A stretch of 64,000 bases of DNA. It comes from Cenococcum geophilum. Its lineage: Eukaryota. A model generated the notes under the pieces. That model worked only from the letters and a program-made list of their open reading frames with translations, was not told the DNA's origin and searched no databases. Made by a program: the position numbers and the translations under genes. Of the stretch, positions 14,901-43,289 are shown piece by piece (positions within the stretch are counted from its first letter, which is position 1; every line of letters starts with the position of its first letter). The stretch is from assembly GCA_050273025.1 (NCBI GenBank), contig CP158635.1:4340001-4404000 (forward strand), read 5' to 3'.

Positions 14901-17900
14901 AGCTAAAAGTAATAAAGTAGTACTTAATTAATAACCTGGATAAAGGGTTTATCAAGCTAAGTTAAGCCTCTTTTACTTCCTCTATTCTATTTGTAAAAAA
15001 GCCTAATAAAGGCCTTAATTTTTACATTAACTATTAAAAGTTAAACGCTATTACTTAAAAGGACTAGTATCCTATTCCTTTAATTAATAAGACCCTTATA
15101 CGTCTAAGCTAGGCAAAGATCTTTACTAAACTTAATATCCGCTAAGCTTTCTACTAAATTAGGATAGACCCTATATCTAAAGATTTAACAATATTTTATA
15201 CTCGTTATAGTTCCTATAAATATAAAGTTCTTCCTTTTAGACTAATAAACGGACTGGCTATGTACTAAAGGTATATAAATAACGTTCTTTTTAATTACCT
15301 TAATAAATTCTGCACGGCATACCTAGACGACATTTTTATATACTTAAACAACAAACTTAAGTATTAAGTTTATATTAAGAAGGTCCTAGAGAGACTACAG
15401 AATATAGGCTTATAAGTTAATATTAAGAAATGCGAGTTTAAGGTAAAACGTATAAAATACCTTGGGTTTATTATAACTATGGAAGGAATTAAGGTTAACC
15501 CTAAGAAGGTAAAGGCAATCCGTAACTAAAAGCCCCCTTATATAGTAAAAGAAATCTAATACTTTCTTAGTTTTTATAACTTTTATTACTAGTTTATCCG
15601 TAACTATAGAATTATAGTAAAACCTCTTATATAACTAACTAGGAAGGATATACCTTTTATTTTTAATAATAGCTATATAAAAGCCTTTAAAGAGATAAAG
15701 GATCGGCTTATCTCTTCCCTAATTCTTTATTACTATAACCCAGACTTTAAATTAATGCTAAAAATAGACGCCTTTAATAGGGTCATAGCGGGAATCCTAT
15801 TACAGTTATATCTAGATAGCAAATAGTACCCTATAGCTTTCTTCTTAAAGATAATAGACCCGGCTAAGTATAACTATAAAGTATATAATAAAGAAATGCT
15901 AGCTGTTATTTAATTACTCTTTTAATAGCGCGTAGAGCTTAAAGGTATAAACTCCTAGATTAAAATATATACAGATTATAAAGCCCTAAAGTACTTTATA
16001 ATTATAAAGCAGCTTACTAAATAATAAGCCTAGTAGGCTAAAATACTCTCCTAATTCTTCTTTATAATTATATATTATTCTAGTAAGTAAAACTCTAAAG
16101 CTAATACCCTAACCTAAAAAGAATAAGACGTAGTGTGGTGGGGTAAAATGGGCCACTACTTAGTGCCTTGGCATTTTCCTGTATATATTAAGCCTTCGGC
16201 TTCTCTCCTTCTCGCTAGCACGACCTACCGGAACACATTCTTTCCTTTCTTCTTACTGACTACTTTCCTACTAATTGATTACAACTGACCGACCGACCGA
16301 CCGACAGACCGATAGCACTGTGACTTTCCTATCTGAGAGTGGTCGTACCCTCCTATATATTTTATGGCATTCCACGTGGGGATGACGGCAAGCTCTTTAG
16401 ATTAGAAGTCTGGCATTTTACACACAACTATATACGCGTAGGAACATACCACGACTATAGAAGAACCGCTAGCTGTAGAAGAACGACTAGCTGCAGAAGA
16501 ACCGCCAGCCAGACAGATGAGACGAAAGCAGAGAACTAGGCAGTATCGGACAGCAAGGGGAACCAGATAGTCCCTAAATAGAAAGACAGCGGAAAAGACG
16601 GACATTAGACTTAACGCATAGGCTAAAGAGTGGCAAAAAGGAGTGGTAAAGGTCTTGGAAAGTTATGTGTAAGGACGTTAAGCGAACCAGCGAGCCAATT
16701 AGATAGCTTTGACCGGCAGTCGGAGATACCTGATTTCTTTTACCTGCGCACGGACATGGCTAGAGCTTTATTAAAGATATAGAGATAATAGGCAGCCAAG
16801 GGCCAATTAATTAGATGGAAATGAGATCTAAGGCATCTAGCGGCAGAGGAAGTTAGCGCTGCCCTTTAGGAATAGAAGAGAGAATACCGAGCAAGGTTGC
16901 AAGTACACGAGATTAGATCTGCCCTCGAAAGCTTCCTATTCTGGTTTAGCTTTATCTTTTTTTAAGTTATCCGGATCGTGTTAGCGGCGGCTGCAAAGGC
17001 GTTCTATGAAGAAGTAGATATAGGCAGAAGCGTAAGGCTTAGCAGCACCCTACCGCGCGGAGCAATGGCAGGCCAAAATAGACGGACGTATCGAGACCCG
17101 GCAGTAGTAGAAGATAGCGATTCTATACTCTCCCAGGAAGACCGACCTCTAGGCGTTAAGAAGCAGCCAGAAGAAATCGAAGCCTATACCTCTTTTACTA
17201 AGTATAAACTAATACCAGGACAGCCGTCTAGGATACTATTACCTTAGGCGGCAATGTAAGCAGACCTACTATAGTATTTACCCGTGACACCTAGGACCGA
17301 TAACCCTTAGTAAACAAAGGATAAGAACCGTAAGGACCACCTATAAGCTCCTAAGGAAGCTCTAGATACGTCACCCTATAACCAGCAGTTAACAGCTTAA
17401 GATAGGATCTACGTTATGGTCCAGCCTATGCCAGCCCCAGGAACTATTGGAACTCCGTACTTTACAGGACAGGACATATTACAGTTTATTAAGCAGTACG
17501 AACGGCTATGCGTCCGATACTATGTAATAAGTAAGGAGAAGTACCAGGGCCTTCTGGAGTACTGTAATTACTGGATAGGGATATGGATCCGAAGCTTGCC
17601 TAAGTTTATAGCTGGTGACTGGACGGAGCTTATAAGAAAGCTTAGGGCGGAATACCGAGGAAGTAACTAATTTTGACAAATGGAAACGGTAGAATTCTTA
17701 GAAGCCTATATACGGCAGTATAGGGATAGTCCGCCAAGCAGCGCACGTGAGTACTATAGGCAGTTTACACTGATCTTCTAAAGGGTTACGCAGGTAGGTA
17801 ATCTAGGGAACGCTTAGCGAGGGTACTGGTTTATAAAAGGACTTCCGCTTAAATATTAAAGGTATGCTATAGCTAAAACGGGAGCTAATCTAGATAGACG

Positions 17901-18269
17901 AGAGTCCTTTAACTTCTATTAGTTACAGAGAGCTATAGAGGACAGGCTTAGTTTATATAAGGGCGCGGATTGTCTATTAAAAATGGACCCCAAGGAGCAG
18001 AGCCTTCGTTAGCTAGTTAAGTAGTTCTATAATTAGCAGCCAGTTATAGGCAAAGATGCTACCCTTTAACCACCTACGATCTTTTAGCTAAATAAGACAG
18101 CCGACGCCTGTTAAGCTAGCTAGGAAACGGACCTAGTTAGACCAGGTGTACACGGAGGAGCCCTAATACAGCAGCATTTACCCGCTATAGATTAAGCTAT
18201 AGTTTAAAGCCTAGCATAAGGATATGGCCTGGTATTAGGATACGAAGACTGGCAGAATAGCACCCGACC

Positions 18270-18375
18270 TCTATAAGACTCTCGATATCCGCAGGACTTC
18301 CGACCTCCGTAGGACTCTTGATATCCGCAGGACTTCCAATATCCGTAGGACTTCCGATATCCGCAAGATTCTACT
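18270..18375. repeat. 18-bp tandem repeat (CCGYAGGACTTCCGATAT) within element E
   Basis: About 5-6 imperfect copies. Confidence 0.8.
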
Positions 18376-21319
18376 ACCTTTAGACGACCGCAGCGGGACG
18401 TACGGGGTCAGCAGGATGGCACGCGATCTAGCCCAGGCCGATGGACCTATTTTAGATGCGGAGGAAGTCACCGTTTTACCAAGCACGAATGTTAAGGCTT
18501 AAAGGATCTTATTTAGTAAGGATTTGTATATCTATCTAATTAAGGAAGACTAGTAGCTGGGATACGCGACCGACCTGGACCTAAACTACCGTGGCTTGGC
18601 AATGAGGGACGATTAAAAAACATTAAGAACTAGCTCCGTACGTACTAAGGAGCAGACCTAGATAGACCAAAGAAAAAATAGACGCAGCAGCGGGCCTTCC
18701 ATAACGGAGTAGCGCTAAAGATTAGTAATAAGAAAAGTATAAACTGGGGGGACTACTATTAGAATCGCCTAACCCTTAAAGACAGCCGCGTAACTAGGAC
18801 AGCTATTAAGCTATAGGAGAGTAATGTATAACCAGAAGACTATATACAGATTAGGTTACGGCCTATAGAGAAGGCAGCTGAAGCTAGGGAGGACTACTAT
18901 TAGAATCGCCCGACCCTTAGAGACGGTCATTAGAGACGGTCATTAGAGGCGGACGCTTAAAGCAGACTCTATAGCAGGTATAGAATGTTTAACTAGGGGA
19001 CAGTTAAGTTCTAAGGTGGGGGAGGGGACGCAGGTAACGGCCGTATAAAAGATTTCTATTTGTTTGCTTATTTACTATATTTCCTAAAGCTCCATTCTTA
19101 TTTACTTTCTTAATTACAACGCATTAAGACGACCTGCCGCAAAGATATTAGTTTAGCTCACCGCCTGTCGCCGAGCTAATAGCGATTTTCTATCCTGGGG
19201 ACGGAAAATCCTAATTGGTCCATTCAGCAGTAAAGCCGGCAGAACCCTACACCGCCCCTAGAATTCGACGATGTGCTAGCCGCACAACGAGAACGGATAC
19301 CAAGAGCCTTAATTAATTGCACAGATACAGAGCCGGTTGTACAATATAGAGCCAGACGCAGAGCCTTAATCGAACGACTGTACGGAAGCCTTGGTCTCGA
19401 GTAACTGCATAGAAGCTACGGCTAGTCGAAGGGTAGAATTAAGCCAGAGCCTCAATATCAGCACGTCGCCGTCACTGAATCGAATTAGTTAAATATCGTC
19501 AAATTAGAGCCTTTAACCGGGCCGACTTTGTTCCTTATTCAAACGACAGCTGATCACAGCTCTGCCCTACCACCCAAATTCAGTACTGTACCGGCTGCAC
19601 GACAAGAACAGATACCGCGGCAAGGAAGGGACCTATATATAAGGATAGCAGCACGATATTAGAAACAAGCACCGCGGAACCGTAAAGTAGTATATAAAGA
19701 GGCACTGATAAAGATGCTCTGTAAAAGATCGTATACAGGGCACAGCTGACCACATTAAGCCTAAGCCATCTTTATATAACTAAAGACAGGACAAAGCCGT
19801 ATCTGACTAAGCCAGTAAAGGACCTTATTAAGGACTATAAGGGAAACAGGAATGGGACGTATAGGAGCTAGCACTTCTTAGAGATCGTCTTAACAAAAGG
19901 ACTATATTATGGACGCAAGGGCAAGGGATATATGACAGAGGTAGTTATAATAGCCGAGAAGCTGCCACCGGATAATAAAGAGACTGGAAGTAGAAGATAG
20001 TCCCTAGAAGGCTCTTAAGCTAAAAGAAGATTAAGGACACGTAAGCGTACTGCCAGTAGTAAGGGTAAAGGAGCAGCCGTAAAGGCCTAAGATGCGCTAA
20101 AGAAGCCAAGTGCAAAGACGGCCTAGAAAAAAAAGAAAGCAGCTATTAAGGACGTCCCAGAAAAGCACTAGGCCTATAGTAGTAGTTTAAAAGGAAGCTG
20201 CCGTTAGTGTTCGCGAGGGAGAAAGTCTTAAGACAGGTCTCTAGATTGGACGTCTAGTGGACACTAAGAGCCTTAATCGACTATATAGATATAAAGCTTT
20301 AATAGAACAACTGCACAGCTAGAGTCTTAATTAATTGTCCGCAGATGCAGAGCCTACGGATGCAGAACCCAGGTTATACGTATAGTAGAAGACACCTTAA
20401 GTTAAGCCAGAGCCTCAGTTAAATCCTAATTAGTTAAACGCCGCCTATATAAGTTAAGTCGTTAAATTAGAGCCTTCGGTCGGGCCGACCTAATACCCTA
20501 TTTAAACGTTAGTCAATTATACGTTGTCACAGTTAAATCAAATTAGTCACCGTCGCCGTCAGACGTCTTAGATCGGCAGTTAAAGATGCATTACCGCAGG
20601 CACGCAGATACGCAGGCATATAGGCACTAGACCTAATCAGGGAACCAGTACACGGCCAGAAGAACGTTGGAAACACGGTTAATTAACGTTTTGGAGCCTC
20701 TGCGAGAGCCTCTTCCCTTAACTGCCCACCCCCATATTGATTAACTGCTGCCCGTCTTAACGCCCGCGAATTGGCTAACTAGAATAATCTTTCCTGCAGA
20801 TATAGATACGGAGCTTTACACGGAGTCTCGCACGGAGTCTATAGATATGGAGCATATAGGTGCAGAGCCTTAATTGGACAGCTTGACTGGACGCCTATAG
20901 ATGCGAAGCCTTGTACGAACAGCAGATGCGGAGCCTTAACCAATCGGACGTCTGCACGGAAGCTTTAATTAACTGTCTACGGATACAAAGCCCCAGTTAT
21001 ATATGCAGCAGAAGACACCTTAAGTTAAGCCAGGGCCTTATCGAATCTTAATTAGTTAAACGCTGTCTCCGCATTCAAGTTAGGACAATTAGAGCCTTCA
21101 ACTGGGCCGACTTTCTACCTTAATCGAACAACCGAACAATTAGTTGCAGCACGTCGTCGCCGACCAATTAGACAGTCTTTGTCCGACAGTTAAAGCAGGC
21201 ATATAGGCACCCACGTAGATACGGACGTAGACTATGCAGAGCTAGGTATAGAGCCTTGATATTAAACGACTAGCCGAACCACCGAGTCAGGCCGTAGTCT
21301 CTGCTATCTTAATCAACTG

Positions 21320-22000
21320 CCCTGCCGCCGCCGCTACCGCTACCACTATTCCGTCTAGCTATTTTATCCCTACCGTCTCAACCAACCGCTCTGTCTCTAC
21401 TGTTCTAGATCTATACCGTTGCTAATACTGTTTTAACTATTCTACTATTGCTCTACCGGCCGCCATATTCTACCGTTTTAATTGCCCCGCTGCCGCCCGA
21501 CTAGCCGCCTCCGACCAACTGCTACCGACCGTTCTATCACTAACCGCTCTGTTACTGCTGCTGCTGCTACTACTGCTGCTACTGCTACCATTCCAACTGC
21601 TCTAACTGCTGCTTCTACTGGCCTGTTCCGTTCTACTGTTTCTACTAACTGCTACTCTAACTAATCTGTTTTACTATTGCCGACCGACTGTTTCACTTCT
21701 ACTGCTACTGCTACTTCTACTGCCACTGCTGTTCCGACCAGCTATTCTACTGCTACTGTTTAACCGTTCCGTTCCGCTATTTTGATTGTTTTACCGCTAC
21801 TATTCTAACCAACTGCTACCAACTAACTGCTACTGACCGTCCTGTTACTGATTCTTCTACTAAGTATTCTGCCGCCGACTATACTGTTTTATTTTACTGC
21901 GCTAAGTATCTGCTTTTCTTACTGTTTCTACTACCGTTACTATTGCTGCTATTACTGCTATTACTGCTGTTGCTACTATTACTGCTACCGTTATTGTTTC
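21320..22000. repeat. Low-complexity (ACT/GCT)n-rich tract in the 3' region of element E
   Basis: Directly visible trinucleotide-like degenerate repeats. Confidence 0.8.
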
Positions 22001-25000
22001 TAGTTTACTGCTGTCCTAGTTACTAGGTTGGACCTTAGCTATAGGTAATAAAGGGGCACTACAGAACAGTTCTATAGGAGAGCTAAGGATAGGGTTATCT
22101 AAGTTCTTTTAGGGGTGTGCTTTCCTTTTTCTATTCTGCTTTTACTTTACTTTTGTTTGGCTATTCTTCTATAGTATAGAACGTTAGGGGATAACGTTCT
22201 TGGTGGGGGAGGTATATAGTGGGGTAAAATGGGCCACTACTTAGTGCCTTGGCATTTTCCTGTATATATTAAGCCTTTGGCTTCTCTCCTTCTCGCTAGC
22301 ACGACCTACCGGAACACATTCTTTCCTTTCTTCTTACTAACTGCTTTCCTACTAATTGATTACGACTGACCGACCGACCGACCGACAGACCGACAGCACT
22401 GTGACTTTCCTATCTGAGAGTGGTTGTACCCTCCCACAGTAGGACCCTAGGATAAGCTAAAGACCTAATATTAGACGCGCGCCCTCCTTTATCTAAAATA
22501 CCTTAACCTATAAAGCCTTAAAAAGCTAGACTTCTAGTAAAACGAGCTAGCACTAATAGAGGAGTCCTTAGATAAGCTAATAGGGCTAATTAACAGCCTC
22601 CTAACTGTAAACCGTATGGCTAATGCCTTAAGGGCCCTTTGCGAATAAGCTATAAAAGGGGGCCCTAATTTTAAGATAGAGGAAGAATTACTTCTATACT
22701 AGGAGCGGCTTGTAGTCCCTAACGTTAATAATTTATAGACTAAACTAATCCGCGAAGCTTATTACTAAGTCTCTATAGTATACCCTAGCAAGAACAAGAT
22801 CCGTGAAATTATTAACTACTACTACTACTAGCTAAAAATAGTTATAGATATTAATTAATATATATAGAACTGCGAAGACTGCTAGAGAGCTATAATCCTA
22901 CAGGATAAGACCCTAGGACTACTTAAGCCACTCCTAATACTAGAGCGCCCTTAGTAGTATATTTTTATAAGCTTTTATAAACTACCTAGGGACCGTAACA
23001 GATATAATATAGTTATAGTTATGGTTAACCGCTTTAGTAAACGCCCGTTTTTAATTCCCTATTATAAGAATATTAATGCTAAAGAGGTAGCCTAGCTATA
23101 TATCTATTATATCTACCAAATCTACAGACTATTAGATACTATTATATCTAATTATAGGCTATAGTTTATATTGGCCTTTTAGAATAAGTTTACCTAGATC
23201 TTAGGTATTGAGCTAAAGCTTTTTATAGCTTATTACCCCCAGATAGACGGTTAGACAGAGATTATAAATTAGTACCTAGACTAGAGGCTTAGACCCTTTA
23301 TTAACTATTTCTAGGATAACTAGTTTAAACTACTACCCTAAATAGACTATGCGCAAGCAACCCTACCCTATAACTCTATAGGGTTTGCCCCGATTTAGCT
23401 AGAAATAGGATACTTACCCTATATAAGCTTTAATTAGAAAAGGCTAAAAAAACCCTAGACTATATAAGAGAAGCTATTCTATACTAAGGCCTAATAGTAC
23501 GCTAAACGATTAGAGGAGGCCTAGATAGTAGCCCGCGGGAACTTAGAAAAAGCTTAGAGGTTAATAGAATAGTAGGTAAATAAACACCGTTAAGAGCCTA
23601 ATTTTGCCCCTAGTAATATAGTTTAGGTTATAATAAGGAATTAAAAAACCAAATAACCTAGCTATAAGCTAGATTACTAAATAGTAGGACCGTATAAGGT
23701 TCTTAAGAAAATAGGCAACTTATATAAGATAAAGCTCCCAGATTTAATTAGGGTTTACCCTATTTTCTTACCGGATAAGTTATAAAAAGCTATAAATAAC
23801 CTATTGCCTAGACAAAAGAACGAGCCTCCCCTACTAGTTTAAGTAAACGGTAATAACAAATAGGAGGTTAATAAAATACTAGCTTATAAGATAGTATAGG
23901 GAACGCTAAAATACTATATTTAATGGAAGGGCTATAATCCTAACCCAACTTAGCACCCTATATAGAACTTTATAGGCTACCCCTAGAAGCTTAAAGAATT
24001 TTATAACTAATACCCTAATACGCCTAGACCCCTAAAGTACCTAGATAAATAGATAGAATGCTAGTATAATAAAGATAATAAGTTACCGGAAGAATATAGG
24101 GATAAAAACGCCCTAAAGCCCTAATACAGCTATCTGCCAAATTCTACTATATTCTGCCGTTTTTCTGCTAGTACTATAAAATATTAAATATCTAGAAACT
24201 TTAACCGCCGGTTAAAGTTGTCTAATTAGTTAGATCCGTGCTAAGACTTTTAGCGGCTACTCTTTCTAGCCTAGTGCTTCTACTTAGCTCCTAATTACCC
24301 TTTATACTTAGTCTGGACGCACTTATTATTCCCTTTATCTCCTTATCTTATATTTTATAATCCTATGTTTATAAGCCTAATACTACCCTATTTCTAACTA
24401 AGCCTAAGGGCAGGCTTTCTTTTAAAAAGGGGGGTAATGTAATGGCGCTATCGCACATTACCTGCTAAATTATACTATATTCTACCAACCTATAATTGGC
24501 CCGCCCAAAGCTAGCGCCTTGGCGGCTTACCCTATATATTTATTTACATCAGTCCTAGCGACCCCTTTTCCTTCTCTTTAGCTTAGTATCTTCGTAATAT
24601 AGTATTCTACCAGCTTTGGTTTAGAGGCATTTATACAAGCTGTAACACCTACTCCTTTTTAAAAGGGTAGTTAGCTTTAAGGACCAGATTGTTTATTTAT
24701 ATCTTTTATTTATAACTACTATTCTTCCTTAAAATTTCGCGATAACCTAAATAGAAACTCTATAGATACCTTATGGAAAGCTATCGCGTAAAGGTAGGAA
24801 AGTCCCTCTAATAGCAAAGATTACGATAATATAACCCTTTGGGTAAGACGGCTAAATAAGCTCTAATACCTAGATACTCTAGAAGCTTAAAGACTTTTAT
24901 ATACCTATAGTTACCGCTAAGGAAAACATAGATGCCCTTTATAACGGTTATAATGCTACTAAAAAGTAACTAGAACCCCTCTAGCTCTACTTAGGCTAAT

Positions 25001-25206: not shown

Positions 25207-28200
25207 TGTTACGGTGCTGTAATAAAGTAGACTAAATAACTACATTGTGATATAAAGAGGAGAAGAAGGTAAAAGGGGGTATTGTATATAAATAGTAGGG
25301 CCAGCCGCTAAGGCACTAGTAGTAGGCTAGCTAATGATAGGAAATAGTATAAGATAGTATAAAACAGTATAAAACAGTATATATTAGGTTAGTACCGTAA
25401 CAGTACTCCCCTTCTTAGAAGGTTTGGTCCCTAAACTAAATAAATAACTTATTTTTACTATAAAGATATTACTTCCGCTTACTGCTTTTAACTAAGCTAG
25501 TAGAAATTTTCTATACTGGGTATAGAAAATCCTAATTAGTTAGTTTAATAAATAAAGTTAGTAGAACTCTATACCGCCATTATATAGCACTTCTTAGTAA
25601 AAAACCAACTAATTAGATAACTTTAACTAGCAGTTAAAGTTCTATAAAATCTTAACTACCATAAATTATCTTTATGGTTGGCTACGGTTTTAGTATAACT
25701 TTTTCTTATCTTATACCTAGTTTGGAGGTTCTGGCTTCTTAGGATATTATTTATAAAACTTTAGTAGTACGCGCTTATACCCTTTTAGGGATTTCTTAGG
25801 TTTCTAAGTTTCCTTATTATAATACTTCTACTTAATATAATATATTAAGCCGTACTTATCTATTTTTTTATTATATATATTAAGGATCTTTTTAAATTTC
25901 TACTTATCCGTAATATTGCCGTTATTATCCCTTTTAACTATCCCATCTATAATATTATAACGTTTCTTTTTATTAATATATACTTAACTAGAAATCTCTT
26001 TAGGGAACTAAAGGCAGACTTTTAAAGTATAAAAAGACTTATTAATACAGATGTGGTCCGGGAGGTTAACTATAACTACTTCTTTATAGGTAGCTAGGAC
26101 GGGCTAGGGTCCGTTCTAGTTATTATCCTACTTTCTCTTAGGCCGGTTAGTCTTTATATTTTTAAGGCTAACTATAACTATATTATCCTTTTTAAATATT
26201 ATACCCTTATCTTGTTTTATATTAGCGTTATTTTTATAATATTGCTAGGAGATATAAGCTAGGGCCTTAAGCTAGGTTAGGATGCGCTTAAAGTGGTTAG
26301 TAATAGTATTAGCTTATAGGTACTCCTTTTTTTATATATATAGACAGAGCTAATAGCTAGAGGCCTAATGGTTTAATACCTAGACGTAGGTTATAGTTAT
26401 AGTTGGTAAAGAACGGTAAGATTCCCGTGGTTTTATTAACTTAGTTATTTATAGTAAACTTGGCAAGGGGGAGCCAATCTACTTAGTTATCTTAGGTAAA
26501 GCTTATAAAGGCACGTAAGTACTTATTTATTGCTGCGTTAATAATCTTAGTTTAACTATTTATTTTAGGGTGCTATACGGAGCTAGGGCTTAGGGTTACT
26601 TTTAGGCGCTAGTTTAGGCAATGCTAGAAGTTAGAAATAATGGTATTTAGAGCGCCGTATAACTTATAGATAGTGTAAATAAATGCTTTAATAAGCTCCT
26701 TAGTATTTAGGCTAGTAATAGGAATAAAGTGTCTTATTTTTATTAGGCGGTTAATAATAATAAAGATATATTTATATATTTTGCCGTTATAAAGGCACTT
26801 AGGTAGATTAATAACATAGTTAATAGAGATATTGGTTTATAGGCAGACTAGTAGTTCTAGTAGTTTTAAGAAACTAGGTGGTGCTAAGTATAGGGTTTTT
26901 ATATAGAAGTAGAGAGCGCAGTCTCTTATAAAGGTAGCCGTGAACTATAAAATACCTAGCTACTAATACGTTTAATTAAGGAGGTTTAGTGTTTTAACGC
27001 GGCTTAGGTGACCTATAGTATATAACTTCTAGTTAGAGTTTAGGTAAATTAGGGATAAATACTTAATTCCTATAGTAGATTAGGCCGTTAATAATTAAAT
27101 ATTTGGATTTATTATAGTGGAGCAGCTTCCTAATCTACTTGGGCTAATAGTATACTTTATAGTCTTCCTATTCGCATAGCGTAGCTAATATATTCTTAGC
27201 AAGTTTATTCTTTATATAGGTATTCTTAATAAGCTCCTTAAGGGTTTTTTTTAGGCTTTGGGTTTATTACTATAATAAAGTCTTTAATATTCTAGTCTTA
27301 GGATTTGCTTAATAGCTCTTCTAGGATAGTAGGGTTAACTTTTTTTAGTAGTAAGATAACGCGGTCTTGGTGTCGTAGACGTTTATTATTAGTATTAGCA
27401 GGTATAACGCCTAGAAGGCGGCTAAGAGCGTCTAGGATTGTGGCTTTAGTGCTAGGCCTATAAGTAATAATAAAGTTAAATTAGGAAAGGAACTTAGCCT
27501 AGCGGACCTAGCGCTAGTTTAATTATTTTATTATTGTTGGGAATAAAGGCAAGTGGTCACTATATAAGGCATATTGCCATTACGTATAGCAAGTTACCGT
27601 TACATGCGGCAAGTTGCCGTCACGTGCCGCCGCGGCACTAGCGTGGTGAGGAACCTTAAGTTCCTCACCCCTTTCTTCAAGAAGAAAGAAGAATAATAAT
27701 TATTATACTATCTACGAACCGTAGCTACGTGATATTACCTTATATAACTAACACTAATTAGTGGTTAACTTCACTGTTATACTATAGAGCAGCTAGGTAT
27801 TCCACCAAGAAGAGACGAGCTACTGTACTAGTGCTACTTATGCTAGAGGAAGCTATTTTTTAAGGTTAGAACTGGTCCTAAACCTTAAATAGAACTCTTC
27901 TATAAATCTAAGGATCTAAAGGCTAGAACTAGTCCTAAGCCTTTCTAAGATTACGGATTCTTGCGTCTATTACATAGAATAATACGCTTTATAAGTCTTT
28001 GTAATTTAAGGCTAGAACTGGTTCTAAGCCCTATAATCGCAAATACACGTTATAAACGCGTACTAAACGATAAACGCGTACTAAATAATAAATATATATC
28101 ACAAACGCGTACTAAATGATAATCCCTATACTAATAACACTTCCCTCCCTCCGAAAACATGGCTACGCCTACTTTAAATAACTAGAAAGACTCCTTACTA

Positions 28201-31200
28201 CTAGGGGTAGCTAAGTACGCGAAACTTATTAATAAAGATTAGGACGAATTCGCCTTTAATATAATAACTTATACCATAAAATAAGTTAACGGCTTTCTCC
28301 TATACTATATTATATTTTACCGAAATAGATATTACGCTAATTCATAACTATAGGAGTATTTTAGGGAGGATTTTATAGGATAGACTGCTGATACCTAGGT
28401 ACTTAGCAACGTTAATATTGTTTAGGATTTTTAAGACTTCCTCTATAAAAATGGGGTATATATTACTAAGAACGGTAACCTAATTACTAGTAATATTTAG
28501 GCTGTTATTACTAGTATAGAAGAACTAATATAGACGGAAGCTAAAATTATATGTTAACTATGGAAACCTAAAAACAACCTATATTCTTTAGAAGGCAACT
28601 TTAATTCGTATTAAAACCCCTAGAACGCTGACCCCCTACCTAAAGCTGCTCTCCTACCTAGAGGTACTCTCCTACTTAGAGTTACTCCGCCTCTACCTCC
28701 TCCACTTTAACCAACCGGTAAGCCTTTACTAAGAGAAGTTATAAATCTAATGAAGGTATATTCGGACGAAGAGAAAAAGTTTAGAGGAGAACTATATAAT
28801 ATACTTAGAGCAAAACTATAGGTCTTTTATAACTGTTATAATAAGGTTAGAATTTAACGCTACTAGTACTATTACGCTTTCTCTATTATATTAAAGGAAC
28901 GGGCAGCAATATTCTATTACAACTATATTGCGGGTAAAAACTATAACTTTAATATAATGCTTTAGCTTACTAAAGCCCACTTTAAAACTAATAAGAATTG
29001 CTAACTTTATATATCTAAATAGCGGGAGACTACGTTCTAGAGAGTTATTACTTCTAACCTAACAAAGACTCGTTTAGAGTGCCTTTAACTACTCTTTAAT
29101 AAACTCTAAAAAATCCAATGTGGCCTTACTAAAACTTACTAAAATAAGAACAGCCTAAGGGACTAGGTTATCTTAGCATGCCATAGCATTCCTAAGTGTA
29201 ACTTGGCGCTATATAAACCTATAAACACGTTTAAAGGAGTATATACTAAGCTACGCTCCACTATAGGTACTATAATGCGAATATAAGAATCTTAACAGCT
29301 TTATACTAAAAATCCTACCTAACCAAGTATTCCTAACCAATAATTATAACTAGACTAATCGAATATATAGTGGCCGTAGTAGGGAATACGGAAGAGGGTA
29401 TAATTAATATTAACTATAAGGTAATTATAGAGGTCCTTATAGAGGTTTATTTTAAAGTAATTACTAGAAAAAGTGCTATGTTTATAAGAAGCCAAATTAC
29501 TAGTTAACTAGACACTCCCTTAATAAGCGAAAAGAGGCATATAATAAGTTCCGTCAGAGTATAAGAAATATTAGAAATTGTAAGGTTACTACGGCCTACT
29601 TCTAAAGCTTCCTAGTTTAATATAAAGGCGTAGAAGATCTTAAGGGTAAGGTTAATAAGGTTAAACAGCTCCTTATAAATATAGAAATTAAGGACTACTT
29701 ACCTAACCAATACTTTACTAAGTATAGTAAGGTAAATGGCATATAAACTATCGCTATTCTTAATAACTAATCTACGCTCCACTCTATTATAAAGTTAGAT
29801 ATCTTTAACGAGCCAAGGAAGAGTTCCACGTTCTCCTTTAACAATAGATACTTAGCAAATGTCTTTTATAGTATTATGCCAGATATAGGAGCCATAGGAG
29901 TATCTACAGTAGGAGAACCTTAAGTTTAAGCCCTTTAGCAGCTTAATAGCTCTATTTAGATTAACTATTTAACGGCAGGCCAACACACAATTCATTTTAG
30001 TAAGGGTACTATGATCTCTCTTAGCACAATTAGGGTCCAAACCCCCTTAGGATATATTACTTTCCACATTATTCCCACAAACACTCCGTTTCTATTCTGC
30101 ATTAAAGATATAGATAAATTAGGTATTAAGCTTAACAACCTTAAGAATATGCTTGTGTAGGGAGATAATTAGGTGCCTATTATACGCAAGTAGGGTTACC
30201 CTTAGCTGCTCCTTTAATAACCAAAAAAGAGTATTGCTTAGAGCCATTTAACTAAGTTAGAGTTACGTTAACTATACTATTATTTTAGCCACCTATCCGT
30301 TCATTAATTGCTTAGGGTTCTTTAGCGAGCAGGCCATAAAGTTAAGGTTAAGGCAATTAAGCATCTTATAAAGTACTGCTATTACTACCAAATAAACCAA
30401 AAGTCCCCTAGCCGATTTAAGTTTACCCTTAAGAATAACTACAACTTTAACTTCTATATTATCATTAACGTTATATATCTTAGCGGCAAGCCAGTACTCT
30501 AAGTTATTAACTTCTTAACCTTCTTCTAAGCCGCACGATTTTTAAAGAATATATTAGCTAGGAACGCATAGGATACCCTTTAGTTATACTAGATTAATAT
30601 CTATTTAGGACCCCCTAATCAAATCATCTATAACGTAAGAAAGAATTTTTTATCTATAGAGTTCCAATAATAGATAAAGGCAATAGCAATTAAGGTTAAG
30701 GAAGTCCCCGTTAAGGCATATAATAGTATTAGAAAAGTAGAGCAATATTACGCGCCATTATACCACGCATATAAAATTATCTCTTTAAAACTAAAGGACG
30801 CTAGCGAAGAACTTACCTTATAAATAGCTATTAAAGCTATTAATAATTCCGCTAGCCTAGATAGACTCGTACCTATATTACTAGTCTTTAGCGCCTACCC
30901 TTAAATAACTAACGATTCTCTATTATCTCCCTCCGTTATATAATAAGCTAAGGCTATTTACAAGATAATAAAGAAGGTGCGATATCTCTACGCCACACGC
31001 CAGGTCAATGACGTACTAGGAATAAGAAATAGCCTAAATACCTTAACTACACTCGATCTGCCGCTCTAGTCTAAAGTACATATATAGCGTAAAAAGGAAG
31101 GATAGTTAGGCCTATACTAACTTATTATAATTAATGGTTAAACTTATACTATTTAGATGCCTTACTAACCCACTTAATTCCGTTCAACTATTATTAAGCC

Positions 31201-34200
31201 TTACTATAAAGATAATAATTCTAAGCCCTTATAGGATGCCCTAGAAGATGCCTTAGAGGAGAACTATAATTAACATGCCCTAAAAGGCGACTATAATCCT
31301 AATATAATTATAGCAGCAGATATACCACAACTATGACGCGGTAAAGGTCGCCCGAAGGGATCACAAAATCGCCAACATCTTATTAATTTTAAAGAACAAT
31401 TTATTGCTGCTATTAAGAATAAAGTCGAGTTATTAATGGCCTTTATAACAGCTAAAGAGAAGGCTGACTTTAAGCTCGCAAAATAGCTTTAAAAGGAAGG
31501 TTATATTATAACCCTAGGAGCTCCTTTCCAAGCATCTAATAAGTAGGAGATTAACGGTCTTATTATAAGAGGAGTCTTTAAATTCGAGAAGTATAACCCT
31601 ACTAAGTTTAATAGAGTTCGCATCTTTAAGTTAAGAATAGTTAATAAGATTAAGGGTAAAGCTACTAACGCCTTATTTAAAAAATTAAGGCTTATTATTT
31701 AAGGTTACAACGATAATAGTAAAGAAGTAATTCTTACGCAATCTCCTATAATTTAACGAGCTAGTTAATAAGTTATTATCGCATTAGCTCCCTCCTTAAT
31801 AAAGAATAGAATAGCGGTCTATTTACGAGATATCACCTAGGCCTATACCCAATTAGAGACGCACCTTTAGCGCTTAATATTAGCACACCTTCTAGAGCAA
31901 ATTCGCCACTAGTATCCTAAAGATATAATTATAGTTATGCTTAAGCCATTATATAAAATCGCAGAGGTAGGAACTTACTAGTAGGCTACCTATAGCAAGC
32001 ACTATAAAGAGAAGCTTTTAATAACTACTTCTATATTTAATCCCTACTTCCTTATTACAACCACAGGAACCCTATTCGGAATCATTAGTATATAAACTAA
32101 TAATATAATTATCTTAGGAGACAACCAATTCTTAGCTCTTAAAGAGGATAAGCTAGTAAAAGTAAATCTTATAGCAAAGCCAAAGGAAAAGCTTAATTTA
32201 ACAACACTATTACTTTTTAATAGATGCATCCTCTCCCTAAATAAGGATTCTATTGCTTTACGCCAGAAGGGTTAAGGTAAGAAGATTAACATTATTAACG
32301 TTAATTCCCTAAAGTAAGGATATATGGAGTAACGCGCTCGCGGAGCTTATATTACTTCTATTTATTAACCTAAGGCTTTATTTAATCTCTCCGTTGCCGC
32401 CTAATACTAGAAACTAACTAAGAACGATATTCTTACCCTAAATAAACGTCTTTCCCAGTAAATAAACCATCTCGATTAGGGACTACTCTACGTACCTATT
32501 AATCTTACTACCGCTAAGCTCTTTATATTTATTAATAGATCGTTTATAAATAATAAAGATTTTAGCTCCCAGTTAAGATATAAGATTATTATTACAAACA
32601 AATTTACTAGAGAGAATGACTTTATAATCTATAGCAATCTTATCTATTAGAGCTTAACTAAGAGCAAGCACATCACCCGAAGTGTTTTAGCGTTAGAGAT
32701 ATATAAAATAGTTAGCGGAGTTAATATAGCAATTATAATTAGAACTACCCTAAAGATAATTATAGATTAACTCAAACTTCCTATTATCTCTATAATCGTA
32801 TACACCAACTTATATTCCCTCTATAAGTATTTAGTTAAGCTTAGTACTATAAAGGAAAAGCGCCTTATAATCGATATTATGGTACTTTAGTAATCCTATA
32901 AGCGTTAAGAACTCTTTAAGATTTAATAGATTAATAGTTAAGATAACCTAGTAGATGCGATAATAAAGGCGAACCCAAATAAGGCACTAGAGACGTTTAT
33001 TAATATAAATACTCTACATATATAAGTTAAAGGTTGGGTTAAAAGGGAGTCCCTAGAAATTTCTTAATTACGTAAGGTCTTAAGATATCCAGAAACTTTA
33101 ACCGGCGGTTAAAGTTGTCTAATTAGTTAAATTCTGTAGACCCTAACTTAACCCAGCCAATTAGGATTTTCCATCCCCGGGATAGAAAATCGCTATTAGC
33201 CCGCTTACTACTAGCGCCTTAGCGGCCCTCCGAACACAATATCTACCTACGACTCCTAAGTAAGAAGGCACCATATACTAAAAGGCAAATTTTGGGACAG
33301 CGAGACTTATATTATAATAGCAATAGTAAGTAAGGAGGATTAATATTTATTACGCTAGTCAAGCGGTATATATATATAGATAGCAACTATAAAAGAAGAA
33401 TTGCTAGTGTTAGGAATAAAGGTAAGTAGTTACTATATAAGGCATATTGCCATCACGTATAGCAAGTTGCCGTTACGTACGGCAAGTTGCCATTACGTGC
33501 CGCCGCGGCACTAGCGTAGTAAGGAACCTTAAGTTCCTCACCCCTTTCTTTAAGAAGAAAGAAGAACAACAATTATCATACTATCTACGAACCGTAGCTA
33601 CGTGATATCACCTTGTGTAACCAACAATTATTATAAAGGTTTGGAGGTTCTTATGGTCCGTAATAATTTTAAACGGCTGCTTAGTTCCTTATAGTTTAGG
33701 GCGCTATTTTTTTAGTGCCTTAACAATTGCTAGGAGCTCTTTATTATATATTTTATAGTTATAATTAGGGGCTAAGTACTTAGTAAAGAAGAATGTAACT
33801 GGCTTAAGCTTATTACTTTTATTAGCTTAATAAAGCACTCTACCTAAAGCCTAGTTTAAGGCGTCTATATCTACTATAGTCTTCTTTATATAGTTATAAT
33901 ACGCTAGGACTAGTGTTATAGTAAACGCTGTTTTTAGGGTCTAGAACGCCTGTATTTAGTTAGGGCCCTATAACTAGCTAATGCTCTTCTTTAGTAGCCT
34001 AGTTATAGGCTCAACTACCTTAGAGTAGCCTTAGATAAATTATTAGTAGAAGTTCGCAAAGCTAAGAAATTGCTATAGTTCCTTAACTAATGTTAGGTTC
34101 TTCTATCTCTATAAGGCCTATACCTTCTTAGGGTCTATAGTTATGCTATTAGTTAAGATAATTAAGCTAAGGTGTTTTGTTTTAGTAGTATAAAACTTAG

Positions 34201-37200
34201 ACTTATTAATATTAATCTAGAGTCTAGCATTACTAAGCCTCTAAATAATTTTATTTATATATTTTATATGCTTAGCGCGTGTTTTTAAAAAGATAAGGAC
34301 ATTATTAAGATACGCAGTATAGTAGTTATTAAGGGCGTTATATAGAATATAGTTAATATAGTTTTAAAATATAGTGGGTGCGTTATAGAGACTAAATAGT
34401 ATAACTAATATTTTATAGAGCCTAAACTAGGTAATAAATGCTATAAGCCACTTATAGCCTTCCGCGATCCGGATTTAGTTAAACATAGTAATTATATTAA
34501 GCTTAGTAAAGTACTTAACACTATAAAGTGTATTAAGTATCTTATAGACTAGTAGTAATGAATACCAATTCTTAACAATAACTATATTTAGGCCTTAGTA
34601 GTTATAGTAGATTTATATACTACCGCTAGGTTTTATAGTAAGGAGGAGTAGTACAGTAGCTAGTAAGATTAATTTATGGATAAAACCCTTATCTAGTATC
34701 TTATTAATCCACTTCTTTATATAACTAAGTTTAGTAGGTAAGAGTGGTCTATTTTTATAATATAGGGCCTACTTTTTAAGTATAATCTTAATTTTATAGT
34801 CCTATAGTTCGTAAGGGGGTAGCCTATTTATATTCTTAGGGAGGAAGTATTTAATATATTCGCAAAACTCTTTTAGTAAGCGTTATAAAATATCTTTATA
34901 GGTTAATCCTAGTTTACCTTTTAGAAATTTCTTAATATTAGTATTAACTATCTTTCGGCGTAGAGACTTAGACTTTATTTTTAGGTTTATCTTAAGAAAG
35001 TTATAAAAATAAGGGGGTAGCGCTTTGCGGGCTTCGTCTATTATATAGTTGCCTTCTATTAGCTAGTGGAAAGACCTTTTTAATAGGTTTGGTACTTCTA
35101 TTAGGCCTATAGGCAGCTCCTTAAGCAGCTATTAATGCTTTTCTTATTTAACTAGTTCTACTAGCTTTACTATATAAATCCTTATTACTTTTATATCTTT
35201 TTATTTATAGAACTAGGTATAATTAATAGTATAAGTATATTTAATATCGTCTAGATTAGGGCGTATTTAGTTCTCTAGTGCTATAGCTAGGCTAATACGG
35301 CTTAGTTGGCCTAGGGGGGCGGAAATAAGGTAGCGGCTTTATACGGTACACGCGGGAGACGGGTATAAGGTTAGGTATTATAGGGGGGAGGTCTTAATTA
35401 CTCTGGTTTTGGTCTTGGCTGTAACGCCCTTAGCTATTATATATGCGGTCGTATATACGTATAGTAAATAACTTAGGGTTAGGTGTCTTGTTAGTTAACT
35501 TAGGTTAAATAGGTATATATAGGGGACTTATAGTTCTAGTAGTGTTTATTTTTTTAGAGGATAAGGTAGTGGTTTAGTCTTCTAGAATCTCTACTTAGTT
35601 TACTGTATATATTAGCTTACTAGTATTAGGCACTTCCTTTACTGTTAGCTAATAGTATCTAAGCGTTAGCTATATAATACGTCCGTATAATGCTACTTAG
35701 TTATAGTTGGGAATGTGCTATAGGAGATAGTTATAGGTATAGTAATTAGAGTTAAACTTAAGCTCTAGGGCGGGGAAGTCTGCCCTTAGGTTGTGCTTTT
35801 TAAGCTAGGGTATTCTAAGAATTACTAGTATAGAGGGTAATAACTTTATAATATAAAAGAGTATAGATTCTATATAGTAGTTAATTGTTATTATTGCTAT
35901 AAAGTAGTGGGTAATAAACCTGGATAGGAGTCTATTAGTAAGGCGGAGTGGTTTTAAGACTAGGAGTTTTTTTATTATAATATTGTGCTTTTTTATAAGC
36001 GAGTCTTTATCTATAAACGCTAGTGCTATACTACTAGTATTAATAAGGCTTACTGTTTTAATAAGAACTTATAGGAGTAGGTTATATAGTAAGGAGAGGT
36101 AGGTTTAAATAAGGATAGTATTCCTATTGCTATTTACTATTTTAAGGTTAAATAATAGCTAGCTTAAAATAAGGTTTAACTAATCTAGTAGTATAGATCT
36201 AATCCTTTTATCCTTCTCCCTATATAGTTCTAACCCTTAAAGGCGACTTAGTTTAAGGGTTGGCCTTTTAATAGCTAAATTATAGGGCTTAGCTGGTGGC
36301 TGTAGTCTTAGCTAGTATATCCTAATATATCGGTCTCTAACGGTATATATGTGCTAAAGGGTACTTTACTAATAATACGGCCGGTCTTATAATTGGTAGT
36401 AGTATAGAGCATTTATCTATAGTTTATGTATAGGACTATCGGCTAAGGCTATATTAGGGAAGGGAATTATAGGGGTAGGTCTCTATATCCAAACCTACGT
36501 TTCTATTTATAGTTACTGCCTTAATTACTATTCCCTCTATTAAAGAATCTGCCGCGGCTAGAAGGGGGTTAGTGTGGTAGTATTAGAAGGGGATTTAGGT
36601 TCTTTTAGGGGTTATAAGTATCTTTTTAGTGGCTGTGTTAACTATACGCTATATAGAGTTTGTTATCCATATAATATCTTTAGACGTTATTAGGGAGACT
36701 ATTACTACTACTGTTAAACTTAACGGCGTTAAGGCCTATTAGGTCATTCTATAGTAATATAGGTTAATAGCCGCTAGCGGTACTTAGCTTAGCGGTATTT
36801 AGCTTAGTATAATAGGTATAGTTCTATAGGTTATAAGCGAATATATCTATCTACTCGCTCTAGCCTTTATAGTTAGTATTACCAATCTTACGGCTAAGGG
36901 TAAAGGCTAGGTCCTTTATCTTAGAGGAAATATTCTTCTTAAGTAGATCTACTTTTTGTTTCTTAGTCTTGTTTACTTTAATTATTAACTTATTAAGCTT
37001 TAATTTTTAGGACTAGTAGTTATACTCCACTTTGCTTAAGGTATTTAGCTTATTTTTAGCTGCTTAGGTTATATTTATAGTCTTATAGTGCTTCCTTATA
37101 TATACAAATATAGACTCTTAGTTAGAGAAGGTCTATTTACTTAAGTTATTTAGGTGTATACGTAGTATATTAAGGCTATGCTTAATATAGTTATAAGCTT

Positions 37201-38228
37201 TATCTATTAGCATGTCTAATATATAGAGGACTTCGTTTATTGGGGTCTTAAAGCACTTTATATCCCTCTAGAAAACGCCTTAGATCTTTATATCCTATAT
37301 TTTAAAATTTTCTTACTTTTTAGTTGGTGATCCCTTGCTATTAAATAGGGTTAAATCTTTTACTTTACGCTTTTTTCTATAGAGCTTAGTTAGAAAAGAA
37401 GAGCTAGTAGTAGTGTTCTTATTGGTAATAGTCTAGGTAAGTATAGTAATCTAAAGGCTTAGACTTTATATAGTCTGAGTATTTATAAAGGCTTGCTGTT
37501 TATATTATTATATATATAGTTTAAGCGTTTTAAGGGAGTTAATTCTGTGCTAAGCTTCTTTAAGTTAAGACTTTATAGTTTGGCCTTTATTATAGATGGC
37601 TTAGAGACCGCTTTTAATGCTAGTTAGGAAAGTTATATATATAGAGAGGTACTGGAAGGTTCCTGCTATATTAAGGTCCTTAGGGTACTTTAGGCTACTT
37701 CTAATTGCCTAGGTAATATAGGTATAGAAGGTATTAAAAAGGCAGGTAAGTGCTTTGCGTGTGTTCGCTAATAGGGTATTATTTATATTATAGTCGCCTA
37801 TTTTAAGGGATCTGTATAAGGCAATTAAAGTTTATAAGGCTAGCTATAGTACTAAGATTATTTATAACTGTATTGGGTTTGTCTAGAACTTATAGTATAG
37901 TATTATTAGCTGCGCCAGGTTATAATTATACTAGGAAAACAAAAATAATAGATTAGGAAAAAATAAAGGTTGTAATAGGGCGCAATTAGGAATACTATAA
38001 ACTGTTATGGTGCTGTAATAAAGTAGAATAAATAACTACGTTATGGTATAAAGAGAAGAAGAAGGTAAAAGGGGGTATTGTATATAAATAGTAGGGCCAG
38101 CCGCTAAGGCGCTAGTAGTGGGCTAGCTAATAGTAGGAAATAGTATAAGATAGTACGAGATAGTACGAGATAGTATAAGATAGTACGAGATAGTATAAAA
38201 TAGTATACGTTAGGTTAGTGCTGTAACA
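25207..38228 (-). mobile_element. Full-length chromodomain Gypsy C (RIPped), 3' LTR 25207-25402 and 5' LTR 38003-38228
   Basis: TG...CA LTRs, TSD CTTAA (25202-25206 and 38229-38233), PPT at about 25405-25415. AYL(DD)V at about 34285, integrase at about 26400-27010, chromodomain at about 25760-25900. Confidence 0.95.
27535..33626 (+). mobile_element. Full-length Copia D of the fungal GalEa type (RIPped), LTRs 27535-27753 and 33408-33626
   Basis: 219-bp LTRs, TSD ATTAT. Domain order gag(CCHC-like)-PR(DTGA)-IN-RT-RH; RT motif reads QT(DD). A palindrome CACTAATTAGTG (de-RIP CACTGATCAGTG) sits at the LTR junction in place of a tRNA PBS, like the GalEa conserved hairpin site. Confidence 0.92.
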
Positions 38229-41200: not shown

Positions 41201-43289
41201 TTGCCTAATACCTATTTAACTATATTATAAAAGCTTCCTAAGACCTAACCTAAGAAGTAAAAAGCTTAAAGGTGGTAAGGGAGAAAACTAAGAAGGGACT
41301 AATTAAATGGTATAAACTATAGTTATAGCCTAGAAAGGTTTAGAAGGCCTTTTAAAAAATTTATATAAAGTTTATAAAAGCTTTATTACTGCAGCATTTT
41401 AACCTAGATTAGCTATTAATAATAATTACTAATATATTAAGTTTTACTCTTATTAGTATCCTACTATAACTTAATAGATATCTAGACGCTACCTAGCTTT
41501 ACTAAAAACTAGTAGTATTCTATAGTAAAAAATTCTAAGGACCTAAAATTAGGTATTATACCCATAATAAGGAACTACTAGCTATAGTTAACTGCTTTAA
41601 ATAGTAGCGATACTACCTTAAACACGCGAGCTATACTACTTATATACTCTTAGATTACTATAATTTACGCTACTTTATAACTATAAATGAGCTTATACCT
41701 TAATAAGCTAAATAGGTAAAGAAGCTTATATAATTTAATTTTAAGATTAAATATAAGCTAGGGGAAAATAACCCTACTAATAGACTGTTATAACGGCTAG
41801 ACTATATTAAAGGCTTTAAAACGGGGGAAGGAAAACAGATAATAGATATTTTACTCCTTATATTATAGAATAAGCTCTAGGTATAGAATACTTAAGTACC
41901 CATAGCTCTATATATTAAGTCTTAGGCGGTATAAGCCCTATTAGTTTCTATTAATATTCTAGCTAATATCCGGTTTATTACTAATAAGGGTCCAAATATA
42001 CCTAAATAGGATGTCCCTAATATATTTTTAGAACCTAGTAATACACTATCTTTAATTGCTAAGCTATCTCCCTAAACCAATAGTAAAGCTATAAAGTAAT
42101 TAGAACTTGGAGCCCTATAATAACTAAAGGACTTTAACCTTATAGCGGCCTTCCTAATATATACGTATTAAAGAGTTATAAGATCTATAGTACTATTTAG
42201 TTTATACTTAGAGCAGTATAAAACGAAATAGTTTTTACTTAAAAACTATCTAAAAGGTTAACGGATTTTATCTTTAAGGTGTAATAAAGGGACGCTTTCT
42301 ATACTATCTTTAATGCGGAAGTAAACTAGAAATATAATAAAAAGGAAGCTATAAAGTATTAAAATTAGGAATTAGACCTAATAGGCCTTTTATATAGAAA
42401 TAGTAAAGTTTAGGTACTATAAAAAGCAAATCTATAATAGAAGATTCTTATTAATAATTATAATAATCCTTTAGCCGGCCACTATGGTTAAGCTAAAATA
42501 GTGAAATTACTTTAGCGTAAATACTATTGGCTAAAGCTTAAATAAGAAGTAAAAGAGTATATTAGCTATTGCGAGAAGTATTAAATATATAAGATCCGTA
42601 GGTATAAGCCATAGGGTCTACTTAAATTAGTTCCCCCCGCTAGTAAGCTATAGCAATATTACGCTATAGACTTTATTACGGATATCCTGCTATCTAAAGA
42701 TGGCTAAGAATAAATATGCAATTCGGTTCTTGTACTTATTAATAGGTTTTTAAAGTACGTTTAATACCTTCCTATTAATAAGACGATTAATATATAAGCG
42801 CTTACTAACCTAATTAAGGAGAAATGCTTTCTTAAAGTAGATTAGCCGTACTCTATTATTACTAATAGGGGCAGCGTTTTTATAAGCTAGTACTAGTTGG
42901 ACCTATACTTCCATTTAAAAATAGACTACTATTATAGTATAGCTTTCTATCTATAAACGGACAGATAAATAGAATATTAAAACTAGAAACTAGAGTCTTA
43001 TCTATAAATATATTTAAACTACTAGTAAGACAATTAGTGTAAGCTACTTTTGTATATAGAGTACGCCTATAATTTAAAGCAATATTTGTTATATTAGTTC
43101 GCACTAATCCAGATTGTCTATAGCGTTTAACTATTAGGGTTTAATGATATACTTAATAATTACTAGCTAAGGCCGCATAATTAGTTATAGGATCCTACTA
43201 AGAAGTCTAAGGATATCTACTAAAGAGTATAAGGATACCTTTAAAAATAGAAGAAGTAATAAAAGTATATAAAGCAGAGAGCCTATAAA

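Follow-up and report, generated by a model that had tools for sequence, protein, structure and literature searches.

Two short palindromic sequence cassettes, each tied to a CCAAT box, are shared by Gypsy and Copia long terminal repeat (LTR) retrotransposons in a 64,000-nucleotide stretch of the Cenococcum geophilum genome (GCA_050273025.1, contig CP158635.1, positions 4,340,001 to 4,404,000; hereafter the window, numbered from its first letter), and the blocks that carry them have very likely been exchanged between the two superfamilies. The cassettes are separate and travel independently rather than forming one module, and both recur in the 3' untranslated regions (UTRs) of at least five Gypsy and at least five Copia families, where either orientation occurs and target duplications are absent. 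We lean towards reading them as portable double-stranded DNA enhancer or promoter modules, putatively bound by the CCAAT-binding complex (CBC) with a dyad-binding partner and spread by interelement recombination. The window belongs to a 178-Mb genome of 7 contigs and is mostly AT-rich with high TpA/ApT ratios, the expected consequence of repeat-induced point mutation (RIP). Its nested LTR elements comprise element E inside Gypsy A, and Copia D inside Gypsy C.

Within the 3' UTR of D, palindrome (hairpin) 1 was located by sequence match at 33094..33116, followed on the minus strand by the CCAAT box of cassette 1 (33117..33132; GTCTGATTGGTCAGAT in less mutated copies). Cassette 2 spans 33157..33199 on the plus strand, with CCAAT at 33157-33161, palindrome 2 at 33165-33191 and an inverted CCAAT at 33195-33199, such that hairpin 2 has one CCAAT per side, both facing inward. 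A GC-rich box, GCGCCTTGGCGGC, follows at 33214..33226 (plus strand) and recurs within LTRs of both Gypsy A and Gypsy C, immediately above their TATA-like boxes; in A it lies at 24514..24526 (plus strand) of the 3' LTR, with its 5' LTR counterpart at 12228-12240. The 3' UTR of A carries cassette 1 at 24184..24235 on the plus strand (hairpin 24197-24219, loop GCC, CCAAT on the minus strand), and the A LTR has one CCAAT and the GC box without hairpin 2. In the 3' UTR of C, both hairpins lie on the minus strand, hairpin 1 at 25619..25641 by sequence match and hairpin 2, in its G:C variant, at 25505..25531. Cassette 2 of E occupies 19172..19218 on the minus strand (hairpin 19184-19210), reversed relative to the gag strand of E and part of the same block as in Gypsy family G. 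The original prediction had placed six hairpins in the window, all of which are present where it put them, and it had overlooked a half-site in the 5' region of E (16695..16719, plus strand), where CCAAT and one arm of hairpin 1 remain and the far arm is eroded. In 100 dinucleotide resamples of the window, neither RIP-degenerate hairpin pattern was matched, compared with 3 and 3 observed matches. Two details of that prediction required correction. It had given hairpin 1 as AACTTTAACC, and less mutated natural copies read AACTTCGACC-N3-GGTCGAAGTT (48 exact sites); a first guess at the pre-RIP hairpin, containing TTTGACC, had only 6 sites and was superseded by the TTCGACC form with 48. It had also read CCAAT forward in GTCTAATTAG beside hairpin 1, and the box lies instead on the opposite strand (GTCTGATTGG).

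The exchange between superfamilies is supported by sharp-edged blocks shared among hosts whose reverse transcriptases (RTs) do not align, together with a relic of a Gypsy polypurine tract (PPT) inside a Copia 3' UTR. The RTs of the Gypsy hosts are 36-53% identical to each other, those of Copia D and K 37% and those of F and M 30%, and no Gypsy-Copia RT pair among the hosts compared gave a significant alignment. The block common to D and the 3' end of the Gypsy A2 subfamily extends over 33051..33132 (plus strand) and contains the last codons, the E-box-like TCACGTGA (mutated here), hairpin 1 and the CCAAT flank. Between the D copy of the window and the corresponding block of an A2 element (L038), 69 of 86 nt are identical, with 14 transitions and 3 transversions, versus 51 transversions in the 104 nt upstream; these are anchored counts, used instead of transition-tolerant local alignments, which ran past the block edges. 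A similar contrast is seen in a variant of D represented by 8 copies (D-long), which keeps a Gypsy PPT relic at the junction and matches A2 from the last A2 codons to the A2 PPT with 5 transversions in 105 nt versus 51 in the 104 nt upstream. Relative to A2, 26 nt between two T runs are deleted from the D-long block, which afterwards resumes the sequence found directly after the pol end in L192, a copy representing the D state without the insert. The PPT relic of D-long, the insert-free L192 and the difference in transversions inside and upstream of the block point to a Gypsy-to-Copia direction, in which a Gypsy 3' UTR block likely entered Copia D already holding cassette 2. The D copy of the window is likely a deletion derivative that lost 41 nt of the block between two ATTCT-like repeats. 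Sorting of 56 D pol ends, a set enriched for the window type, assigned 33 to that type; a purine tract separates the hairpins in 8, a C-type block is found in another 8, hairpin 1 is missing from 2, and the remaining 5 are variants of other kinds. In a further subtype, D2, the block in common with Gypsy C is longer, and a large part of a Gypsy LTR is recognisable beyond it.

Both cassettes are numerous. RIP-degenerate patterns of hairpins 1 and 2 match 3,593 and 3,029 exact sites genome-wide, versus 0 and 2 for the respective reversed-pattern controls, and the unmutated C:G form of hairpin 2 occurs at 222 sites. On C1, 61 hairpin-1 sites between 0.09 and 2.16 Mb were distributed over the A lineage (20), D (13), G (9), I (9), C (4), H (3), J (2) and an F LTR (1), with 3 of the 61 assigned to their host via near flanks only. 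Families G and I are Gypsy by Pfam, H is Gypsy by tblastn and has LTRs, and F is Copia; cassette 2 is also found in the 3' UTRs of Copia K, Copia M, two F variants and the L168 element. The flanks of families G, H, I, J, K and M were read in part, and some host boundaries are approximate. Each UTR or LTR holds one copy of each cassette. J is a RIP-mutated repeat in which cassette 1 precedes an open reading frame (ORF) with no Pfam match and Atlas matches all at or below 0.85. Units of this family (L132, L133 and L171) are spaced at about 5.4 kb and have cassette 1 some 250 bp ahead of the ORF, which is proline-rich; Gypsy-type integrase and hAT dimerisation fragments were seen upstream in L171. 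The repeats TTCTGCCA and TGGCAGAA, with a period of about 10 nt, accompany cassette 2 and are also present in A-lineage LTRs and UTRs (L097, L057, L066, L149, L168 and L192). In a metagenome scan, at least 122 stretches were recovered; among the matches listed, 97 have the full hairpin at exact spacing and 25 are half matches, many of them GC-rich and probably due to chance. The metagenome stretches examined represent the same element families, one being 99% identical to L092 over 3.4 kb, and the matches listed provided no evidence of the cassettes in a distant fungus. Viral contigs yielded 0 matches to cassette 2, and the other scanned genomes no look-alike windows.

The original prediction had left a choice between exchange among unrelated retroelements and a tiny mobile unit; the sharp-edged blocks and the PPT relic bear out the former, and the distribution of sites speaks against the latter. 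There are 911 D pol ends genome-wide. On C1 below 2.95 Mb, 18 of the 19 listed have hairpin 1 or 2 within about 80 bp, so that the motifs are shared by other copies of the family: 14 have a strict hairpin 1 at 45-70 bp, 4 only hairpin 2 about 75 bp on, and 1 neither strict match. An autonomous DNA unit resembling a miniature inverted-repeat transposable element (MITE) or other non-autonomous DNA transposon would account for the high copy number and the palindromic shape. However, instead of scattered independent insertions with their own target duplications, all 61 sampled hairpin-1 sites occupy fixed positions in 8 repeated host families with no common target-duplication pattern; moreover, the longest edge repeats are 3-5 nt, host-specific across 10 hosts and as expected of a permissive search, and the edges themselves differ by host. 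Such a unit is largely refuted and merits hardly any credence.

The cassettes would instead have spread by double template switching during the reverse transcription of co-packaged RNAs, or by the nesting of one element in another and a subsequent deletion; breakpoints at the PPT end of the donor and the pol end of the acceptor are compatible with either route. The 3' UTR may be a place where such inserts are tolerated. Template switching has reportedly been described in Triticeae (PMC1950507). Recombination between unrelated RNAs is described as rare by Drost and Sanchez (2019, PMC6894440).

The cassettes are not restricted to 3' UTRs. Cassette 1 is part of the approximately 180-bp LTR of Copia F, where it is found in both LTRs of L119 and L123 as well as in solo LTRs flanked by target duplications (L050, for example). 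The F LTR has the order E-box-like motif, TTGGCA, CCAAT, hairpin 1 and TATATA, with cassette 1 about 55 bp above TATATA and 22 nt between the end of hairpin 1 and TATATA. Cassette 2 is present in both LTRs of L300, a full-length A-lineage Gypsy element (LTRs 93% alike, target duplication AATAT, RT 79% identical to that of A) that lacks hairpin 1, and in a solo LTR on a metagenome contig (L238). Orientation varies: the CCAAT of cassette 1 is antisense in A, C, D, G and I and sense in H, F, J and E, for cassette 2, the sense orientation is that of D, C, K and H and the antisense one that of G, E, M, two F variants and L168, and the two-hairpin blocks of G and H are mutual inversions (score 149 versus 37). 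The placement just upstream of the PPT that the original prediction proposed is accordingly borne out by the 3' UTR copies and is incomplete, since LTRs are also a native home and orientation is not constant. As a separate observation, solo F LTRs (L103, L116, L117, L118 and L050) are often little mutated and lie in GC-richer DNA, and intact copies of cassette 1 may adjoin host genes.

It could be argued that the cassettes are neutral relics, namely Gypsy and Copia LTR and 3' ends that were inserted into the 3' UTRs of other elements, the sole tolerant place, and were then eroded and carried along without function. The D2 3' UTR, which past the cassette still aligns with the greater part of a Gypsy LTR, the PPT relic in D-long, the mixed orientations, which are expected of insertions, and the many families and copies without cassettes all agree with this account; nevertheless, we consider it quite unlikely, as one and the same core of 50-65 nt, abruptly delimited, is retained in independent hosts, short motifs persist while spacers change in length and sequence, and five Copia families keep a U3-like part that ends near the GC box. 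For cassette 1, compared across 7 hosts, the purine/pyrimidine class is identical in 20 of 20 arm columns and 16 of 16 CCAAT-flank columns versus 0 of 30 and 2 of 40 further out, and for cassette 2, across 10 hosts, the class-identical columns number 9 of 10, 23 of 27 and 12 of 12 versus 2 of 60 and 0 of 30 outside. A TGCCAAG-like motif lies at +20 to +24, with spacers of 3-7 nt, in 10 of 11 representatives, and an E-box-like motif, which we take to be an E-box only as a lead, is positioned between -24 and -32 in 6 of the 11 and on the opposite side in F. The PacC motif is GCCARG (PMC3305660, sections on the motif), and the labels PacC and basic helix-loop-helix E-box may be useful as leads from short matches.

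The geometry of the CCAAT boxes is constant. The spacing from CCAAT to the palindrome arm is 5 nt in 146 of 146 copies and 3 nt in 93 of 93, and CCAAT is preceded by two purines in 145 of 146 and 91 of 93, versus 564 of 1839 elsewhere, counts in which copies are non-independent and the metagenome set was picked by the same motif. The main variants in less mutated copies, CCAATCAG, CCAATCAC, CCAATGGC and CCAATAGC, agree with the CCAATVR consensus of the fungal CBC; each of the two dyad centres is 17 nt away from a CCAATVR box, and in both palindromes, which are unrelated, a 7-nt GC core begins exactly 13 nt after CCAAT. The consensus and a CBC footprint length of 13 nt are given in the relevant part of Furukawa et al. 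(2020, PMC7144946), where composite promoter sites of the fungal CBC (HapB/C/E) likewise combine CCAATVR with a second site starting from the border of the 13-nt footprint. In contrast to CBC:HapX sites, the cassettes lack the HapX signature, with positions 13-15 reading ACC, TCC or TGC and no bipartite CSAAT-N12-RWT site, and the partner of CCAAT is a long GC-centred palindrome. E retains CCAAT and one arm after the loss of hairpin 1.

The DNA reading draws on the occurrence of both orientations, the sharp cores, the motifs kept across changing spacers, the fixed CCAAT spacing, the 13-nt geometry and the half-site of E. The host CBC would bind a cassette together with a palindrome-binding partner, and selection for transcription-factor sites would account for the retention of cassettes. 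From the 3' UTR, a copy would exert its effect on the neighbouring LTR (through the 3' LTR, through LTR circles or tandem copies, or through 5'-3' looping), and a shift of the PPT could bring it into U3. Several observations weigh against this reading. The help that a 3' UTR copy might give its host, and its 5' LTR in particular, is the weakest step, given that upstream activators in fungi usually work at short range and from upstream. A short variant of D lacks TGCCAAG, the M copy of the window lacks the cassette that its relative L057 has, and none of the 13 distinct best-preserved Copia RT loci carries either cassette, which makes the cassettes dispensable. RNA reads on an F solo LTR revealed no transcription start, these being 316 mostly partial reads from a diverged strain (5-12%), and RNA contigs there carry no strand information. 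Constraint is apparent only between families, a pattern that recent serial copying could mimic. Finally, nearly all conserved positions can also pair, with cassette 2 forming a 43-nt inverted repeat and TCTGA-TTGG-TCAGA a small stem; the variable pair of hairpin 2 covaries (24 C:G and 29 G:C in the first 53 listed sites, 4 mixed among 3,029 genome-wide), and a 4-nt loop is present in 18 of 101 metagenome copies of hairpin 1. Covariation and 4-nt loops are at least as compatible with a stem as with a rigid protein dimer.

These last points belong to an alternative in which the palindromes act as RNA or cDNA stems, promoting the pairing and co-packaging of unrelated genomic RNAs or RT pausing near the PPT and spreading themselves by template switching, with CCAAT serving mostly as stem bases. 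In addition to the near-perfect covariation and the tolerance of loops of 3 or 4 nt, stable stems are predicted on both strands, the cassettes lie near the PPT, a perfect palindrome is identical in either orientation, and 17 of 17 first mates over hairpin 1 in run X21, whose library strandedness is not established, fall on one strand. We regard this alternative as rather unlikely. In either orientation, the asymmetric flank is preserved along with the TGCCAAG and E-box-like motifs; E has CCAAT and one arm without a hairpin, and the fixed CCAAT spacing and common 13-nt geometry also weigh against a stem. No Rfam match was obtained at the cassettes of 7 less mutated loci, with weak matches to microRNA models confined to a repeat of L063 away from the cassettes. 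RIP transitions are uninformative on G-U pairs, and the double change in the variable pair may also arise otherwise, as strand switching within a DNA palindrome can yield it in one step.

The enhancer reading must also be set beside a chromatin or integration signal, in which the cassettes would be nucleosome-free or anti-silencing sites, or sites for an element-encoded protein, rather than transcription enhancers. The CBC is a histone-fold complex that bends DNA, E-box factors open chromatin, and the hosts lie within heavily RIP-mutated DNA; however, the native LTR position above TATA-like boxes suggests ordinary promoter use, and a role of this kind appears very improbable. A broader and tentative extension, which we hold as a possibility rather than an expectation, is that LTR retrotransposons of this genome form one regulatory commons, in which Gypsy and Copia elements repeatedly trade CCAAT-anchored palindromic enhancers via their 3' UTRs, the palindromes supply pairing and crossover points for recombination between unrelated elements, and the cassette is a selfish element spreading among retrotransposons and co-ordinating their bursts under one host signal.

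Several known systems resemble parts of this arrangement. Sharp-edged mosaics and non-coding parts reshuffled between families are features shared with reverse-transcription-related interelement recombination of LTR retrotransposons, as outlined in parts of Drost and Sanchez and in the corresponding sections of the sugar beet study of Maiwald et al. (PMC13570524), where modular groups and modular non-autonomous elements are described. The RM boxes of Sireviruses are likewise palindromic and CG-rich, located above the LTR TATA box and in the internal 3' region of divergent elements, and a regulatory role has been proposed in the portions of Bousios et al. (2010, PMC2829016; 2016, PMC4728375) dealing with them; as described there, they form many-copy clusters with a CGG..CCG core within one plant Copia genus. 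The F LTR shares with them a palindrome upstream of the TATA box. In contrast, each cassette occurs singly rather than in high-copy clusters, has an everted core (CCG-N-CGG or SCC-N-GGS), is linked to CCAAT and is common to both superfamilies, its hosts being fungal Gypsy and Copia elements rather than Sireviruses. The GalEa elements' Conserved Hairpin Site (CHS; Donnart et al. 2017, PMC5445492, in the sections on this site) is likewise a hairpin in non-coding sequence whose conservation extends across families within a single fungal genome. According to that text, it is GalEa-specific and replaces the primer-binding site right behind the 5' LTR, with CHSeq1 reading CTGATCAGT or CTAATTAGT, and its supplement covers 44 GalEa elements. 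Identity of the cassettes with the CHS was rejected, since they lie 3' of pol or in LTRs, differ in sequence and have Gypsy hosts too, and D has its own CHSeq1. In the literature covered, which leaves most subscription papers and supplements outside its scope, neither these cassettes nor a repeated trade in 3' UTR blocks between fungal Gypsy and Copia elements was found to be described; the main text of a genome paper on a repeat-rich RIP fungus (PMC12910237) contains 0 occurrences of 'palindrom', 'hairpin' and 'CCAAT'.

Gypsy and Copia are treated as separately evolving, and repeated directional transfer of non-coding sequence would mean that the barrier between them is porous. A shared upstream signal would be a testable explanation for the joint expansion of many unrelated families within a genome. 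The two short motifs are suited to binding and reporter tests and point to a putative palindrome-binding partner of the CCAAT complex. In practice, repeat annotation will cross-assign families that share cassettes.

The host elements are defined as follows. A is a chromodomain Gypsy at 12152..24647 on the plus strand (3' LTR 24438-24647, target-site duplication CCTAC), interrupted by E and identified through the Pfam domains RVT_1, RNase H, integrase H2C2, SH3 and Chromo. C, a Gypsy with RVT_1 and RNase H matches in Pfam, spans 25207..38228 on the minus strand, with LTRs at 25207-25402 and about 38003-38228 and the target-site duplication CTTAA, and is interrupted by D. D lies at 27535..33626 on the plus strand (LTRs 27535-27753 and 33408-33626, target-site duplication ATTAT, pol stop 33065-33067) and is RIP-broken; because of RIP, its frames in the window have no Pfam match. 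Fungal GalEa elements are marked, in the diagnostic passages of PMC5445492, by the order integrase, RT and RNase H, RVT_2, KSRLVI/QTDD-type motifs, the CHS, TG..CA LTRs near 235 bp and a 5-bp target-site duplication. In the less mutated D copy L115, RVT_2 is detected just below the cut-off (E 1.7e-7, 31.5 bits; cut-off 31.6), the integrase precedes the RT, and the RT motifs KLRLVI and QTDD are present. CHSeq1 of D (CTAATTAGT, 27754..27762, plus strand) lies directly 3' of the 5' LTR and forms a hairpin distinct from the two cassettes. With the integrase, RT and RNase H order, these domain and motif matches, CHSeq1, 219-bp LTRs and a 5-bp target-site duplication, D is by its sequence features a fungal GalEa Copia. 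E (16134..22438, plus strand) is an LTR element nested in A with LTRs and a gag-like frame, and Pfam gave no pol match for it in the window; its internal repeats have a period of about 960 bp at 19295-21238 and of 18 nt at 18277-18372.

Other features of the window include a further Copia M (RVT_2; about 43900-46860, minus strand) nested in a Gypsy at about 38750-43070. A 984-amino-acid open frame at 7379-10333 (minus strand) occupies the sole stretch without a RIP signature and is probably a host gene amid repeats. The segment 799-3221 has 35-nt inverted ends (799-833 and 3187-3221), is filled by tandem arrays of 18, 4, 20 and 12 nt, and has related copies in L015 and L018. At 47225-51170, a remnant of a DDE_3 (Tc1/mariner-type) transposase near 47940-48360 is enclosed by inverted ends, and a further inverted repeat, of 174 nt, lies inside them at 49018-49445; a MITE-like element with 219-nt inverted arms is located at 10988-12137, with copies in L034 and L042. 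Finally, A-lineage Gypsies (24400-24437 in the window; L038 and L300) have a conserved small hairpin, AAAGCC..GGGCAGGCTTT, adjoining the 5' side of the PPT, which recalls the PPT-flanking inverted repeat of Sireviruses.

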